Made by a program: the position numbers and the translations under genes
Notes under the pieces: generated by a model
Seen by the model: only the letters and a program-made list of their open reading frames with translations
Database searches by the model: none
Told to the model about the DNA's origin: nothing
DNA from: Escherichia phage T4
DNA: 64,000 nt
Reading direction: 5' to 3' (one strand)
Sequence record: OL964735.1
Shown here: in pieces, positions 13,118-52,906 of the stretch
Layout: every line of letters begins with the position of its first letter
How positions within the stretch are numbered: position 1 is the first letter of the stretch

Positions 13118-13360
13118 TTAACCAGTTACTTTCCACAAATCTTCATTTGCAGCAATCCATTCAGTACGTTGATTTTCTTCATATACTGTAGAATATGCTG
13201 CTTTTTCTGAAGGGAATGTCTGGTAATGAGCGCCAGAAATTTTGTGAACGTCAGAATAAAGAGGGAAAGCTACAGAAATTTCCTTTCCTTCAATTTTCTT
13301 ATTTCCATCTAATTTCTGCTCAAATGTTTTGATATTAACATAACCGCGAGTACTAGCCAT
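13118..13360 (-). CDS. soc: small outer capsid protein Soc, 80 aa
   Basis: Sequence MASTRGYVNIKTFEQKLDGNKK... matches recalled T4 Soc; late promoter upstream, terminator downstream. Confidence 0.92.
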   Translation of the reverse strand: MASTRGYVNIKTFEQKLDGNKKIEGKEISVAFPLYSDVHKISGAHYQTFPSEKAAYSTVYEENQRTEWIAANEDLWKVTG

Positions 13361-13389
13361 GTAATTCTCCTTTATTTAAATTACATGAT

Positions 13390-13397
13390 TATTTATA
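13390..13397 (-). promoter_or_regulatory. late promoter TATAAATA for soc
   Basis: Minus-strand TATAAATA 30 nt upstream of the soc ATG, overlapping the segF stop codon. Confidence 0.75.
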
Positions 13398-14067
13398 CAT
13401 CTTCTTTTCTGAATAAGTAAATTAAATTCTTAAGAGCCGAACTTGTTACATCATATTTTCCTTTAAGCGCCTTTACAACCGGGCCTGTTGCTGGTTTACC
13501 TAAAGAAACCCATAACTCGTGTATTTCGCTTTTAAGTGGTTCATGCCAATGCGGTGCTTTTCTTTGCGCCCTTGAAGTTCCTTCTGAAATCTTTTTATTT
13601 CCGCCATTCGAATAAAACTTTTTCATTACTTCAGATTGCCGAGCTTTTCTTTCTGCCCTATTTTGGGCTATACGTTGTGAATTCTTCATCCGAGTTTTTG
13701 TTTCAGGATTGTTTAATCTAAGTTTATGTTCTAATCGTTGTTGCTCAGTCCATTTTCTTCCTTCTCCACCCTGACCACCAGGAGAAATATTAATGCAAGT
13801 ATCTGGGTGTTTACGTTTTAATGCAGATATTAGCTCACGTTCAACTTCATATGATTTTTCTCTAGAACCATGGCATTTTGACCATCGTATTTTATAATTA
13901 AATCCATACTTACGATATATGTTCCATAGTATTTTACCTGAACCCGGATATTTATCATTATATGGATTTACAATAAATGATTCATGTTTCCCAGCGTACC
14001 AAAAGACGCCTTTCGGCGTCCTAACTTTTACTATATATGTTCTATAAAATTTTTGTTTAATATCCAT
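13393..14067 (-). CDS. segF: GIY-YIG homing endonuclease SegF, 224 aa from ATG at 14067
   Basis: GIY-YIG-like motifs (TYIV ... VFWYAGKH); between 56 and soc as in T4; track ORF starts at an upstream TTG. Confidence 0.8.
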   Translation of the reverse strand: MDIKQKFYRTYIVKVRTPKGVFWYAGKHESFIVNPYNDKYPGSGKILWNIYRKYGFNYKIRWSKCHGSREKSYEVERELISALKRKHPDTCINISPGGQGGEGRKWTEQQRLEHKLRLNNPETKTRMKNSQRIAQNRAERKARQSEVMKKFYSNGGNKKISEGTSRAQRKAPHWHEPLKSEIHELWVSLGKPATGPVVKALKGKYDVTSSALKNLIYLFRKEDV

Positions 14068-14572
14068 TATCTTGACGTTCAAAATTATGTTTGTTCTTCA
14101 GATAATAAAGTTTAAAGATTTCTTCCGCATTCATTCCAAGGCCAACAAACATATTTAATACGAAATGAAATATATCCACAAGCTCAAATTTAATTTCGAG
14201 CTGGTCTTCGGGGGACATTTCATCAATGCGTTTTTCTTGCGCTTCAATATAACGTGCTTTCCATTTTTTCCATACAGCAGAAGCTTCTTTTTCACCACGT
14301 GACATTTCACCAAGAGAAGTCAGAAGTTCGCGGAATTCATCATCAATACAGTCTTTTTGTTCACGCATCCAAGAAACAACATCACCGGCAGTTTCTAATT
14401 TATCTGGATGATAGCAGTATTCGCGGACATTAGCCAAACGAATCTGTAAAGACCGCTGCATATCAAGCATAACTTGCAGCGGATCTTTTTCATCACCGAG
14501 AATATCCCAGTATTCATTTTGAGCTTTATCAACACCTTCGATCAAATGAGCACATTCATTAAAGTGAGCCAT
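14057..14572 (-). CDS. 56: dCTP pyrophosphatase (dCTPase) gp56, 171 aa
   Basis: Track ORF begins at TTG; ATG at 14570-14572 gives MAHFNECAHLIEG..., 171 aa as recalled for T4 gp56. Confidence 0.85.
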   Translation of the reverse strand: MAHFNECAHLIEGVDKAQNEYWDILGDEKDPLQVMLDMQRSLQIRLANVREYCYHPDKLETAGDVVSWMREQKDCIDDEFRELLTSLGEMSRGEKEASAVWKKWKARYIEAQEKRIDEMSPEDQLEIKFELVDIFHFVLNMFVGLGMNAEEIFKLYYLKNKHNFERQDNGY

Positions 14573-46221: not shown

Positions 46222-46522
46222 TTTCTTCTCGGTCAAATCGGTGTTTACAATGGCGACATTTATAACGAAGATTATTAGTCTGCCAATGGACCAATTGCAC
46301 CTGTTCAGTTCCACATTCAGGGCAATTAGGAACGTTTTTAGAAGCCCTTTCGCGACGTTCAACCATGACCATTACAGAATCCCAATTAACAGGAGGGCTA
46401 TAATCATCACAACCATAAATCTTTCCACGCATTTCCAGATCGTCTTCTTCACCAGCCATAATAATTTTAATTAGACTAGAATTACTTGAAGCTGCAATGT
46501 CTTCTAATAGACGCTTTTTCAT
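46208..46522 (-). CDS. hypothetical zinc-ribbon protein (104 aa)
   Basis: CPECGTEQ ... CRHCKHRF double CxxC pair. Confidence 0.55.
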
Positions 46523-47445
46523 TTCAATACCTCAATAGCATTACGTAAACCATTTGCTTTGGCGGTTAAATCCTTAAGAACTTTAGTATGCTCTTCAATC
46601 TGTTTTTCAACTTCAATCAAACGGGTACTGAGATATTCGCGTTCTTCTTTCATAGTATCATTCCCATGATTGGGCTTTGGCGTAGGTTTAAATTTATTAG
46701 GGTCCTTTAACTTAATAACAACTTTAGTTTCAAACAGTGAAAGACCATAATTCGTATTATCATCAAAGGATTCAACTACGTCCATTTTAGACAATAACGT
46801 ACGAAGATTATAAGTCAAAGAACGAATCGTTTTATTATGTTTATTAGCTTCACATGGTTTCATATATGGAAGATTTTTATATATTTCATGCGGAGCACAA
46901 ACAATAATTAACAATTCAAATGGTCCATTCTGTGATGATGGAATGAATTTAGCCGTAACCCAATCTTTTACATTTACATTAATAGTACGATCATCGCCAT
47001 GACAAAACAGTCTACGAGAATGCTTAAAAAGCATATTCACATTATTATTAAATTCGTGTGAAAACTCACTGGCAAATTTTTCTTTACTATCTTTAGAAAA
47101 CCATTCTTCTAAATAAGTTCTTTTCACGTCGTTAATAATATTAAATGTAACAACATTATCATTTGATACATTAGTCTCAATGTAGCTTGGATACATAAAT
47201 TTTTTAACATTATTAACAGCTATCACAGAAGATAGTAATCGGGAACGTTTGAACCACTCGAGCAAAGAACCAAGAGAATGTGAATACGCATTTTGTGTAT
47301 CTTTACAAATATGGTTTTCCCATCCAATATAGTCTAAAAAATCACGAAGAATATTATTGATTACTTCTCTATGTCCTTTCTGATAATCACGATGTTTAGT
47401 AATAAGACTGTCAAAATAATCAATATAATGTTTACGAGTTTTCAT
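46519..47445 (-). CDS. hypothetical protein (308 aa), member of a 4-gene tandem paralog family with C-terminal coiled coil
   Basis: ORF in track; C-terminal heptad-like region ...[31 protein letters not shown]. Confidence 0.6.
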   Translation of the reverse strand: MKTRKHYIDYFDSLITKHRDYQKGHREVINNILRDFLDYIGWENHICKDTQNAYSHSLGSLLEWFKRSRLLSSVIAVNNVKKFMYPSYIETNVSNDNVVTFNIINDVKRTYLEEWFSKDSKEKFASEFSHEFNNNVNMLFKHSRRLFCHGDDRTINVNVKDWVTAKFIPSSQNGPFELLIIVCAPHEIYKNLPYMKPCEANKHNKTIRSLTYNLRTLLSKMDVVESFDDNTNYGLSLFETKVVIKLKDPNKFKPTPKPNHGNDTMKEEREYLSTRLIEVEKQIEEHTKVLKDLTAKANGLRNAIEVLK

Positions 47446-47499
47446 GTTCTTCTCACTTGGTTAATGATTTATACTCCGAGCCATCCTTGGCTTTAAATT

Positions 47500-48501
47500 T
47501 TACTTAATTAACTGCAAAGCTTGTTCTAGACGATCAAGACGATTAACGGATTCTTCCCAAATCTTTTTAGCCTGCTCATATTCTTTCTGCGCTTTATTAG
47601 AAATTTCTAGAACTTCTTTATAAGCTTTTTCTAGTGCAATAACTTCTGGACGAATTTCTATCGGTTCAGGTGAATCATCAAGACATTCCATTAGTTCCTC
47701 AAGGGTAGTTTCTTCTTTAGGAGTATTCACAATTTCATCACATTTTTGTTGGTAAATTTCTTTACTAGTAGGTGAATAAGCACATTTCACTTCACGAAGG
47801 CTAATTACGAGTTTATATCCTTCCCAACCGCATATATTCTTAAAAGGATATGTATGAATATTTTCTACTGTTTCCATACAAAGTAATGCGGTCTCTAATT
47901 GACGAGTTATAGTGCTAGCAATTGAGAAAAATTTATTAATATTCTTTTGGTTAGTTTCTGGTGTAAAAAATCCATAATTCACAAAAATAGATACTTTATT
48001 TTTATCAAGTTCATATTCTTTTATGATAATCATATCAGAAGCCAAAGGATGAATTTGACGATAATCGCCATAACATAATTTAGAAGCTGATTTTAGAATT
48101 TGCTTCTTGAAAAGTCTGAAATTACTAATCCAACGACGAGTAAAAATATTCTCAGGGTCTTCTTTATTATTGAGATGATAAGAATTAACATCACCGAACC
48201 AATTATATCCTACTACATCTTTAGTTCGTTTAATTTCTTTCCCAAAATTACCAAGAATATCCCGATTAACCAAATATGAAAGAAGACGAGACTCTTTAAA
48301 GGTTTTCTTGATAACATCTTTATCTACACGGCTAGAAATTTTACGAATTTCATGAATAAATTTAGTAGAAGAAACAATACTTGCATCAACACTATTGAGC
48401 CACTGATTGATAATAGAAAGAACGCTATTTTGGCCAAACATCGGTATAGCTTTATCATCAATAACGCTATTGAATGATTTGATATATTCGTTACGAGTCA
48501 T
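47500..48501 (-). CDS. hypothetical protein (333 aa), paralog family member
   Basis: ATG at 48499-48501 (MTRNEYIKSF...) with SD GAGGAG; shared motif RRWISNFRLFKKQILKSASKL; track start TTG lies inside promoter 48530-48559. Confidence 0.6.
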   Translation of the reverse strand: MTRNEYIKSFNSVIDDKAIPMFGQNSVLSIINQWLNSVDASIVSSTKFIHEIRKISSRVDKDVIKKTFKESRLLSYLVNRDILGNFGKEIKRTKDVVGYNWFGDVNSYHLNNKEDPENIFTRRWISNFRLFKKQILKSASKLCYGDYRQIHPLASDMIIIKEYELDKNKVSIFVNYGFFTPETNQKNINKFFSIASTITRQLETALLCMETVENIHTYPFKNICGWEGYKLVISLREVKCAYSPTSKEIYQQKCDEIVNTPKEETTLEELMECLDDSPEPIEIRPEVIALEKAYKEVLEISNKAQKEYEQAKKIWEESVNRLDRLEQALQLIK

Positions 48502-48529
48502 ATTAATCTCCTCAGTAGAAAGTAAGAAC

Positions 48530-48559
48530 ATTATACCACATCCTTGTGGCAAAGTAAAC
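48530..48559 (-). promoter_or_regulatory. T4-type early promoter (-35 GTTTAC 48554-48559, -10 TATAAT 48530-48535)
   Basis: Anchored between the ATG at 48501 and the stop at 48559; near-identical to the promoter at 230-259. Confidence 0.7.
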
Positions 48560-49581
48560 TAGTTCAGTGCATTTAGTGCATTGTTCAGTTTAGAACGTTG
48601 CTTTGTCAGATTTTGAACCCTTGACTGAGCTTGTTCTAACGCCTTTTCAGCTTCTAGCACTTCATTGGTCGCTTTAACTAATTCAGCATCTACTGCCTTA
48701 AGAGACTTCTCAATCGCATCCGCGTGCCATTTTTCAACAGGTTTAAGACTTGGATTTTCAACAGGAAGAAAATTCACTTTATTGAATTTCCATGCATCTT
48801 TATTACCTGAGCTATACATCCAAAATTTAGGATCGTTTGATAAGTAATTAGATAAATTTAAGTTATCTTGCACTTCTTGCTTTTTCTCTTGTGTGACTTC
48901 GTCCTTTCTCAAAAATTCATATTTAAATGAAACGATCATATCAAGTTCATATGATGTTGTATCTAACTTAAATCGTTCAAAACGAGGTAAAATCTTAGAT
49001 TGAACAGCAGCAACAACATCCATATACTTAAATGCTTCTGTCAACTGCGATTTAAGGCATTCGCAAATTGAAAGAGAATTTTTTGTATTAGGTTTAAAGC
49101 TAATTCGTGCAGTTCTATTATTTTCTTTTAACGGTCTTACTTCCATCTGAAGAGTATAACCATCAAATTTCAGATTCTTTAAGTTAATGTCAGAGCCTTT
49201 TAATCGACTAGCAGTAGACAAAATTTGCTTTAATTGTCTACGGAACAGAGCAATAAATCTCCATTCAATACGATAATGATTTGGATTGAAAAATCCAGAT
49301 GATAAATCGACCTTACTTTGACCAACGCCTTGAACAAATAGAGGATTTTTATAATCAATAGTTTTACAGAAATCGGTGAGCTGTTCACGAGCAGTCATTT
49401 GAGTAATATACCCTGCTTTACTAAAATTACGCACCCATTCACTGCTATTCGTATACTTAAAGTGATGAATAACACGATTAACTTTATCAGGGTCTAAATT
49501 ATTTTCACACAAAAATGTCATAACATCACGAGTATAGCTGGCATTACGAACCATATCTTCAATTTGAGAACGAGTTTTCAT
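48559..49581 (-). CDS. hypothetical protein (340 aa), paralog family member
   Basis: Shared motif EWRFIALFRRQLKQILSTASRLKG; C-terminal coiled coil. Confidence 0.6.
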   Translation of the reverse strand: MKTRSQIEDMVRNASYTRDVMTFLCENNLDPDKVNRVIHHFKYTNSSEWVRNFSKAGYITQMTAREQLTDFCKTIDYKNPLFVQGVGQSKVDLSSGFFNPNHYRIEWRFIALFRRQLKQILSTASRLKGSDINLKNLKFDGYTLQMEVRPLKENNRTARISFKPNTKNSLSICECLKSQLTEAFKYMDVVAAVQSKILPRFERFKLDTTSYELDMIVSFKYEFLRKDEVTQEKKQEVQDNLNLSNYLSNDPKFWMYSSGNKDAWKFNKVNFLPVENPSLKPVEKWHADAIEKSLKAVDAELVKATNEVLEAEKALEQAQSRVQNLTKQRSKLNNALNALN

Positions 49582-49589
49582 GGTGTTCC

Positions 49590-50504
49590 TTAAGATTTAA
49601 GTAAATCAACAATTTTAATTAACTTTTCACGCTCAGATTTAGCTTTACTACTCAATCCAGATAGTCTGAAAATTTCATCATCATATTGTTGAATAGAAAT
49701 ATTCAGCTCTTCAATTTGCTTATTAAAATAATCAATTTGTTCAGAATGTTTTTCGTTACTACGAACTGGTACAGGTTTTGTAGGCAATTTAGTTGAACTG
49801 GATTCATTCGGGCGATAAATTAAAATGCAATTTGAACCAATCGGGCATTTAGCACCAGATGAATATTCTAACGTTCCAGCTTCTTTTAAAACTTCAAAAG
49901 CTAAACAGAGATGATGCCCCATATTAACATAATCAGTAGAGCGAGCTCTGATGTAATAATCATCTCCACGAGTGCTAAATTTAAAGCATTTAAGGTCTTC
50001 TGTATTATTAGTTTTAAAAATCATTTGTTTATCTAGACCTTTAGCCAATCGAGCACCTAATGCTAATAATCGTCGTTGATTTTCCCACAAATCTGCGATC
50101 ATTTGGTCAAATGATAATTTCGGCATTAGCCGACCATAAAGGTCATATCCTTTATTATAATTGCGAAGGATTTCACTCGCATTAATACGAGACAACGCTC
50201 CAATTTTATTAAGGGCTTTCATAATACGATTAGATAAACTCATTCCAGACCCGTTTGTTCGCTGTAAATGTTTTTCTAATCCAAATCCAATATCAACTTT
50301 AAATTTATCTAAAATTTCAGCATGAACATCTCTGTCAATAACATTCAAATCCAAAGTTGGGTTAAATCTATGAAAAAATTTATCTGGCTCTCCACGACGT
50401 AAAACAGTCCATTCATTCATCATTTTTTTATTAACTAAAGATTTAATTACTGCGTTGACATTATTAATTACTACTGACATATTTTCCTCACTCAATTTTA
50501 CCAA
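49590..50504 (-). CDS. hypothetical protein (304 aa), paralog family member
   Basis: Shared motif LWENQRRLLALGARLAKG; C-terminal coiled coil. Confidence 0.6.
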   Translation of the reverse strand: MVKLSEENMSVVINNVNAVIKSLVNKKMMNEWTVLRRGEPDKFFHRFNPTLDLNVIDRDVHAEILDKFKVDIGFGLEKHLQRTNGSGMSLSNRIMKALNKIGALSRINASEILRNYNKGYDLYGRLMPKLSFDQMIADLWENQRRLLALGARLAKGLDKQMIFKTNNTEDLKCFKFSTRGDDYYIRARSTDYVNMGHHLCLAFEVLKEAGTLEYSSGAKCPIGSNCILIYRPNESSSTKLPTKPVPVRSNEKHSEQIDYFNKQIEELNISIQQYDDEIFRLSGLSSKAKSEREKLIKIVDLLKS

Positions 50505-50944: not shown

Positions 50945-51472
50945 TTATGCGAGTACCGTATTTAACCGTTCTTCAAACTTCCGAAGAGTGTTCTGGCGTT
51001 CAGCTCTTTGCTTTTTGTAAGTTTCAATACGCTCTGAAATGAGAGTGTATCGTTCATTTACTGATTCTTTCATAAAATCAGGAATTTCACGAGAAGCTTT
51101 AATCTCGTCAAATTTATCAATAACAGCTTGCTCTTCAGCAATTAAGTTATCATACATCAAAATATCTTTCTTGATGAACTCAATATCTTCTTGAGTTACA
51201 CGAGATAATTTAGATGCTTTATCCTTTTTGTACTGTTCGTTAGTATCACGAGACCAGTGTAATGTACGATTTTTATTCGTATTCTTGTAAATTTCTACAA
51301 TACCAATCTCATCGATAATAACGATCCAATTCCAACGGGATTTGTAAATTTGTCCTCCATTAACAGTGATTTCACCTCCGATTGAGATGTCATTAAAGAA
51401 CTTGCTTTGTGCTTCTGATTTAAATTTACCATCGTTGTAATTTACCAGGTTGAAAATATCTTTAGCGTTCAT
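50945..51472 (-). CDS. hypothetical protein (175 aa from ATG at 51472)
   Basis: ATG MNAKDIFNLV... with SD GGAGG; track start lies inside promoter 51501-51530. Confidence 0.55.
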   Translation of the reverse strand: MNAKDIFNLVNYNDGKFKSEAQSKFFNDISIGGEITVNGGQIYKSRWNWIVIIDEIGIVEIYKNTNKNRTLHWSRDTNEQYKKDKASKLSRVTQEDIEFIKKDILMYDNLIAEEQAVIDKFDEIKASREIPDFMKESVNERYTLISERIETYKKQRAERQNTLRKFEERLNTVLA

Positions 51473-51937: not shown

Positions 51938-52906
51938 TTATTTCAGAAGAGTAACCGTAGCGATTTCTTCCCAACCGTTTTTGTCGGTCATAATAAAGTC
52001 AGCAAGATAAAGTGCAGTACGCAGTGAAACATTACGTAAACGGTTAACATTGACTTTCATCCATGATAATGCTTTATAAGTTTCTTCATCAGAAAGACCA
52101 CGCTTTTGCATCATGTCGGTTGAAAGAATAACATCTTCAACCCTGACCATAATTTCTTCATTAGTGTGAACACCCAAATCCAAATAAACTGAGCGGGACA
52201 CTAATGCTTGTAAATGTGGAGCAAGTTTAGTACCACGGTCTAATTCGCGGTCAATGTCAACGTTTGTGATAAAAACAATTGTTCCTTTAAATTCAAACTC
52301 ACGCTCAATGCCTTTTTCTTCTAAGTAAGAAGATGCAGTGCTCCAGCAGACTTTACGGGTCTCTCCAGTGTCCAGAGCAGCTTTCAGAAGATTAAGAATG
52401 TCCATATCAGAGAAAACATCCACATCATCAATCAAAAGGACAGAATTCTCTTCACGATTATTCCAAAGCTGTTCATAAAGACCGATACCAGAGATTTTAC
52501 CGTTAATGCTTTTATACTCAATGTATCCAATATCATTTGCTTTATTCAAAGCTTTATCTAAAGAATATGTTTTACCAATACCCGCCGCACCAGAGATAAT
52601 TAATGAACGAATATTTCCGTTAATAATACCATTCGTCATCATTCCCATAACATTAAATCTTTTATTAATGCGGGTTTTCATATCTTCATATGATTCTTTA
52701 ACTTCTTCAACTTTTACACCATCATATGAAATGTCTGATTTGTAAACCCAAACACCGCGACGTTTACCGTCAATTTCAACAAAAACTTTACCATCTCCTT
52801 GTGCATCTACCGGAGCATTATCAGGGAACCATTCACCTAAGAGCTCAAAAGTTCCAGAGATTTCTTTACCGAAGTAGATACCCTTATTGATAGTTACAGT
52901 TTTCAT
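51938..52906 (-). CDS. P-loop NTPase of unknown function (322 aa from ATG at 52906)
   Basis: Walker A GAAGIGKTYS and Walker B LLIDDVD; ATG MKTVTINKG... with SD GGAG; track start is TTG. Confidence 0.65.
   Translation of the reverse strand: MKTVTINKGIYFGKEISGTFELLGEWFPDNAPVDAQGDGKVFVEIDGKRRGVWVYKSDISYDGVKVEEVKESYEDMKTRINKRFNVMGMMTNGIINGNIRSLIISGAAGIGKTYSLDKALNKANDIGYIEYKSINGKISGIGLYEQLWNNREENSVLLIDDVDVFSDMDILNLLKAALDTGETRKVCWSTASSYLEEKGIEREFEFKGTIVFITNVDIDRELDRGTKLAPHLQALVSRSVYLDLGVHTNEEIMVRVEDVILSTDMMQKRGLSDEETYKALSWMKVNVNRLRNVSLRTALYLADFIMTDKNGWEEIATVTLLK

Follow-up and report, generated by a model that had tools for sequence, protein, structure and literature searches.

The 64,000-nucleotide stretch of bacteriophage T4 DNA analysed here (the window, at its full length) contains four consecutive minus-strand genes, nrdC.3, nrdC.4, nrdC.5 and nrdC.6, which raise a simple question: do they share an ancestor, and if so, what does the known activity of one of them against a bacterial defence imply for the other three? 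T4 is the best-studied virulent phage, and about half of its genes are without a known function. We conclude that nrdC.3-nrdC.6 are old, strongly diverged paralogs with a common architecture, whose role is most likely in counter-defence; taken as a whole, we regard this reading as somewhat better than an even bet.

The window is phage T4 at 100% identity; a 4.2-kb query matches several T4 records at 100%, and the record NC_000866 at 99.9%. The four open reading frames (ORFs) correspond to annotated genes, flanked by nrdC (glutaredoxin) and by nrdC.7-nrdC.11. From the lower coordinate upward, and all on the minus strand, they are nrdC.3 (46519..47445, 308 amino acids), nrdC.4 (47500..48501, 333 amino acids), nrdC.5 (48559..49581, 340 amino acids) and the divergent member nrdC.6 (49590..50480, 296 amino acids, counted from an ATG start).

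In Pfam and PHROG, each of the four T4 proteins is a full-length member of a family of unknown function (DUF7235, PF26897 and PF26899; PHROGs 1435, 2351, 2257 and 26858), and these stand there as three or four separate families, whereas here we join them into one superfamily. Specifically, nrdC.3 and nrdC.4 match phrog_1435 from end to end (E 7.7e-101 and 5.6e-168, respectively); nrdC.5 matches DUF7235 (PF23882) over residues 1-340 (E 5.3e-126; score 420.6 bits, cut-off 30) and phrog_2351 (E 1e-168); and nrdC.6 matches phrog_2257 over residues 1-296 (E 3.8e-152). Precomputed assignments place nrdC.4 in PF26897 and all nrdC.6 homologs in PF26899. Our local Pfam scan of the four proteins returned DUF7235 for nrdC.5 and otherwise chance-level matches to the coil, with no match to PF26897 or PF26899.

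Single sequences reveal little of the relationship among the four. Identity between the paralogs is below 25%, and in pairwise BLASTP comparisons only nrdC.3 and nrdC.4 match each other (24% over 271 amino acids, E 0.002). Family alignments, built from homolog searches together with an exhaustive profile search, were compared by HHalign. The nrdC.3 and nrdC.4 families match at 96-97%. The comparison of nrdC.4 with nrdC.5 gives 49% with the first alignments and 76% with enlarged, more diverse ones, and this alignment is collinear over 146-251 columns, spanning the helix that carries a central motif (described below) and a second helix (QL..A..yMd.V). An independent bridge between the two families is provided by a 315-amino-acid metagenomic protein of phrog_26858 (P0237), which scores 96% against the nrdC.4 family and 88% against that of nrdC.5, and which directly matches both phrog_1435 and phrog_2351. 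In addition, nrdC.3, nrdC.4, nrdC.5 and their distant members carry a common N-terminal M(K)TR..Y/I motif.

The position of nrdC.6 is different. Compared with the nrdC.3, nrdC.4 and nrdC.5 families one at a time by HHalign, it gives no match; compared with the combined nrdC.3/4/5 profile, it matches at 87% (E 3.9e-6) over 152 columns, all of them outside the coil. The aligned pairs include ALSRINA with SRLLS, RRLLALGARLAKG with KKQILKSASKLCYG, and HLCLAFEVL with QLETALLCM. The nrdC.6 homolog of the Mosigvirus JS09 and gp94 of phage fHe-Yen9-01 each match both profiles. In order to calibrate these values, we set them against reversed and column-shuffled profile controls, which score 13-24, compared with 44-73 for the real comparisons. 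Since the real scores lie far above the null controls, the similarity goes beyond composition, and the purely compositional likeness that the earlier note on this DNA had named as the danger to its proposal of four paralogs is not what we observe. That proposal stands, with nrdC.6 as the outlier: as judged from profiles, the four would form one superfamily whose homology is remote and whose link to nrdC.6 is the weakest. A hidden Markov model scan of the whole window found no further paralogs.

What the four proteins share most visibly is their C-terminus. In each of them the last 49 residues follow a single unbroken heptad register, placed alike relative to the C-terminus, with hydrophobic residues at 0.79-0.93 of the a and d positions (p≤0.005). 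The p-values come from a shuffle test within the segment, which replaced a crude heptad score over the whole protein that did not discriminate. The coil of nrdC.3 comprises residues 260-308 (46522..46668; a/d occupancy 0.79, p=0.0005) and that of nrdC.4 residues 285-333 (47503..47649; 0.79, p=0.0045). For nrdC.5 the C-terminal segment is a long helix or coil at residues 281-340 (48562..48741; 0.93, p=0.0005), which AlphaFold2 models as a single 59-residue helix (281-339); for nrdC.6 it lies at residues 243-296 (49593..49754; 0.86, p<0.0005) and is modelled as two helices (243-272 and 278-295). All of these segments are on the minus strand. Thus the C-terminal coiled coils that had been read from the letters are present in all four proteins, and in the two modelled ones they coincide with long predicted helices. 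The coil is closed in nrdC.3-nrdC.6 by a conserved tail, L-x2-A-(I/L)-x2-L-(K/N).

Conservation within the nrdC.4 family is highest in the coil, where the majority-residue frequency is 0.80, as compared with 0.59-0.65 in the N-terminal and beta domains. A nrdC.5-type coil also occurs in a 173-amino-acid metagenomic protein (P0235; positions 120-641 of L012, an 803-bp ENA contig), where it is 87% identical over 53 residues and follows an unrelated N-terminus, which suggests that the coil is a portable module. As a separate observation, the nearby gene nrdC.8 (50945-51472, 175 amino acids) likewise carries a significant heptad coil at its C-terminal end; it was considered as a fifth member and rejected, given that it has no detectable homology to nrdC.3-nrdC.6.

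The earlier note had also described a central motif shared by three of the proteins. This was slightly overstated: the motif is strictly common to nrdC.4 and nrdC.5 (z=5.7, p=0.001), and the versions in nrdC.3 and nrdC.6 are degenerate, aligning to the nrdC.4/nrdC.5 motif at the profile level only. In nrdC.4 it forms the helix TRRWISNFRLFKKQILKSASKLCYGD (residues 121-146; 48064..48141, minus strand), which aligns to the nrdC.5 motif both directly and in the profile alignments. In nrdC.5 the motif alignment places it at residues 105-128 (...WRFIALFRRQLKQILSTASRLKG; 49198..49269, minus strand), where AlphaFold2 predicts two helices (105-115 and 117-128).

The structure prediction that had been proposed as a check was carried out for nrdC.5 (predicted local distance difference test score, pLDDT, 72; predicted template-modelling score, pTM, 0.59) and for nrdC.6 (pLDDT 78, pTM 0.65). 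By the order of their elements, the two predicted topologies agree: a helical N-domain, a ββαββ domain, a disordered linker, and a long C-terminal helix. In both models the N-domain ends with a motif-bearing helix-kink-helix, and the ββαββ domain consists of a β-hairpin, a helix and a second β-hairpin, in a two-layer α/β arrangement. We take all four proteins to be built from these parts in this order, with the heptad coil last. The matches that Foldseek gave in BFVD for these models were all uncharacterised proteins from other genera of T4-like phages; their template-modelling scores were low because the linker and helix are flexible, and the T4 paralogs themselves were not returned. Both models match the same fHe-Yen9-01 protein. 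A 175-amino-acid protein of KPV15 is likewise a weak Foldseek match for both. Profile searches against the sequences of the PDB gave no match, so the family is without a solved relative there.

It is important to ask whether these similarities could arise without common descent, that is, whether four early proteins, similar in size yet unrelated, each acquired a C-terminal amphipathic helix independently, so that their likeness is compositional. Such an explanation would account for the fact that, when nrdC.6 is compared as a single sequence, its scores do not rise above those of shuffled sequences, and the adjoining nrdC.8, which has a heptad coil and yet is unrelated, indicates that such tails are common in the region. 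However, it does not account for collinear profile matches outside the coil with scores far above those of reversed and shuffled controls, nor for the intermediates that bridge the families, the similar predicted topologies, and the N-terminal motif of nrdC.3, nrdC.4 and nrdC.5. We therefore consider independent origin highly improbable; for nrdC.3-nrdC.5 it is already largely refuted.

We turn to function, where one published study bears directly on this locus (Srikant, Guegler & Laub, eLife 2022; PMC9391042). According to it, one T4 clone, which had acquired compensatory deletions, could no longer plate on the E. coli strain ECOR17; deletion of dsr1 from ECOR17 restored plating of the clone; cloned dsr1 shielded MG1655 from it; and expression of nrdC.5 restores its plating on E. 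coli with the ECOR17 dsr1. Dsr1 contains a SIR2 domain and is thought to deplete nicotinamide adenine dinucleotide (NAD+). The nrdC.5 of that study is the same gene as ours (100% identity), described there as early, non-essential, and lost in the compensatory deletions. Hence for this one member the counter-defence reading has published experiments behind it, and the statement of the earlier note that no function is evident is outdated. In the accessible part of the paper nrdC.5 is treated as a single uncharacterised gene, and paralogy, domain architecture and mechanism are not described in that part. Our search of the literature returned nothing on nrdC.3, nrdC.4 or nrdC.6, no follow-up of the nrdC.5 mechanism, and no description of the paralogy or of the domain architecture.

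New here is that nrdC.5, one of a small number of T4 genes linked to a particular defence system, belongs to a four-copy T4 family that shares a predicted modular architecture. Because nrdC.5 disarms Dsr1 experimentally, its three paralogs stand out as good candidates for further anti-defence genes; through the paralogy, ORFs that were anonymous become specific, testable candidates of this kind. With heads that vary and a coil that is conserved, the proteins may divide their labour between the two, and the family alignment offers a guide for mutagenesis and for structural studies of how a phage turns off a SIR2 NADase.

How might such a family act? The genes nrdC.3-nrdC.6 are expressed early, nrdC.4 from its own putative early-type promoter, and are dispensable on laboratory hosts. 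In the mechanism we propose, NrdC.5 may neutralise Dsr1 as a non-enzymatic, stoichiometric binder of Dsr1 itself or of its activator; we propose a binder because no enzyme family is detectable, and because the architecture consists of interaction domains and a coil. Recognition of the defence protein or of its activator would fall to the variable N-terminal and ββαββ domains, while the conserved C-terminal coil may oligomerise the inhibitor or dock it on a common partner. NrdC.3, NrdC.4 and NrdC.6 could then be specificity variants, directed against different Dsr1 alleles or against defence proteins other than Dsr1. The source of this mechanistic model is DSAD1, another phage protein directed against a defence-associated sirtuin and described as an inhibitor of the SIR2 NADase DSR2 that binds the sensor region and competes with the tail-tube activator. 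By our homology search, NrdC.5 is not homologous to DSAD1.

A more elaborate version of the proposal, which strikes us as quite improbable, is a modular anti-defence platform, in which the coil assembles homo- or hetero-oligomers or docks the paralogs, each head neutralises a different immune sensor, and the ββαββ domain is a decoy of a structural protein. The ββαββ domain would in this case resemble phage neck and tail-terminator (gpU-like) proteins, and could serve as a decoy for defences that sense structural proteins, as DSR2 senses the tail tube. If so, T4 would carry a set of four related decoys, and the anti-Dsr1 protein would be the sole one to have come to attention so far.

In a different explanation, the four proteins might act on host or phage transcription, or on some other housekeeping process. 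They could, for instance, bind RNA polymerase by means of a domain resembling the N-terminal dimerisation domain of its α subunit (α-NTD) or Rpb11, and the anti-Dsr1 effect of nrdC.5 would then be indirect, the activating signal being removed or masked. Such an indirect action of NrdC.5, for instance on transcription through an α-NTD-like domain, is compatible with the published genetics and is the main rival to direct binding. Taken as a whole, we think this explanation unlikely.

Patterns of variation bear on whether the counter-defence role extends beyond nrdC.5. We computed the gene-wide ratio of nonsynonymous to synonymous substitution rates (dN/dS) for T4 against JE01, PinkRuby and T2. 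The ratio is 0.22-0.33 for nrdC.3, 0.16-0.22 for nrdC.4, 0.15-0.23 for nrdC.5 and 0.02-0.08 for nrdC.6; thus all four are real genes under purifying selection. For genes 49, nrdC, nrdC.1, nrdC.9 and nrdC.10 it is at most 0.06, and pin, nrdC.2 and nrdC.7 are less constrained than these. The variation of nrdC.3 comes for the most part from old alleles being exchanged (dS ~1): at the amino-acid level 135 records are more than 90% identical, 272 are 60-80% identical and 242 are less than 60% identical, reflecting deep alleles within Tequatrovirus. At high identity, nrdC.4, nrdC.5 and nrdC.6 each occur in about 460-500 phage records, where the number of Tequatrovirus genomes is taken as about 500, since nrdC.10 is present at ≥95% in 501 records.

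The family is tiny, phage-only and confined to T4-like phages: the nrdC.3/4/5 profile finds 18 representatives among 1.84 billion proteins. Other genera have between one and three members in the same region, with three in JS09 and one or two in Merlin, PKO111, fHe-Yen9-01 and Acj61.

These data must be weighed against the view that only nrdC.5 is an anti-defence gene, the other three having either taken on unrelated roles as they diverged or persisted through linkage as functionally redundant remnants. The functional data are indeed limited to nrdC.5 among the four, nrdC.6 evolves like a housekeeping gene, and the paralogs are less than 25% identical in sequence. On the other side, nrdC.3, nrdC.4 and nrdC.6 are under purifying selection and nearly universal in the ~500 Tequatrovirus genomes, and they retain the full predicted domain architecture including the register of the coil; and nrdC.3 undergoes deep allelic replacement, which is typical of host-interaction loci. 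On balance we find this restriction to nrdC.5 rather unlikely.

Returning to the family-wide counter-defence role that we favour, several observations weigh against it. The anti-Dsr1 data for nrdC.5 are genetic, and an indirect effect, for example on the activator of Dsr1, is equally compatible with them. The membership of nrdC.6, the weakest, depends on one profile match at 87% and a predicted topology, and the nrdC.5 and nrdC.6 models are of moderate confidence. Gene-wide dN/dS stays below 1 throughout, and nrdC.6 is highly conserved, unlike typical arms-race genes; the word diversifying, which the earlier note had applied to the array, is only partly apt: nrdC.3-nrdC.5 evolve faster than their conserved neighbours (0.15-0.33 versus ≤0.06), and nrdC.6 is conserved. 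Finally, phage ACG-C40 (L005 6802-7213) retains only an N-terminal stub of nrdC.5 and a C-terminal stub of nrdC.3. Lacking most of nrdC.3-nrdC.5, it shows that the genes are dispensable, and it does not indicate their target.

The junction in ACG-C40 is not the only rearrangement. One protein (P0120) is an in-frame chimera of nrdC.5 (residues 147-270) and nrdC.3, with the junction ...FNKVN|MLFKH, and the nrdC.6 of Shigella phage Sf25 (P0121, 378 amino acids) has an internal tandem duplication. The nrdC.3-nrdC.6 array recombines naturally.

As for gene boundaries, the coordinates first given for nrdC.3, nrdC.4 and nrdC.5 hold, and a single start required revision. For nrdC.6 the TTG at 50504 is less fitting, and the start is most likely the ATG at 50480, which follows GAGG and yields 296 amino acids; we prefer it because the full-length PHROG match and another annotation agree better with it. 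The start of nrdC.4 at the ATG at 48501 was right: ahead of it, in the gap between nrdC.5 and nrdC.4, lie a candidate early-type sigma-70 promoter (GTTTAC-17 nt-TGgTATAAT; 48530..48558, minus strand), identified by its match to the consensus, and then a GAGGAG Shine-Dalgarno sequence. A longer TTG ORF for nrdC.4 was rejected as spurious, since it would run through the gene's own promoter. Overall, our generic promoter scan is at background (38 sites found versus 33 expected), and by eye only the site before nrdC.4 is convincing. The genes nrdC.7, nrdC.6 and nrdC.5 are tightly packed; nrdC.6 and nrdC.5 are 8 nt apart and therefore probably co-transcribed.

Compared with NC_000866 and AF158101, the window has one extra base at 49702-49703, inside nrdC.6. 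Because that base is missing there, a 276-amino-acid nrdC.6 is annotated in those records, with the coil frameshifted and truncated. The 296-amino-acid protein is the common form (cluster P0122, 940 member sequences), and the old reference probably contains an error or a strain-specific frameshift. The sole substitutions relative to NC_000866 in the 4.2-kb stretch are in nrdC.3, at 46807 and 46933.

The neighbouring gene nrdC.10 (51938-52906, AAA-like) is at least 99% identical in 440 phage records, and it occurs in 1311 records, reaching Vibrio, Acinetobacter and jumbo phages. Within 5 kb, then, evolutionary rates differ sharply, as nrdC.3 falls to ~60% identity within the genus.

Public annotation of these genes is uneven. 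In Klebsiella phage PKO111, the 324-amino-acid ORF at 13145-14119 (L007) is a clear member of the family, matching the superfamily profile at 97% by HHalign, and the RefSeq record has no gene annotated over this interval. In GenBank records nrdC.3-nrdC.10, and the whole region, are often mis-annotated as ‘thioredoxin’, a label apparently propagated from the locus-tag prefix nrdC, and in one record a MobD.1 homolog is labelled as a molybdopterin biosynthesis protein.

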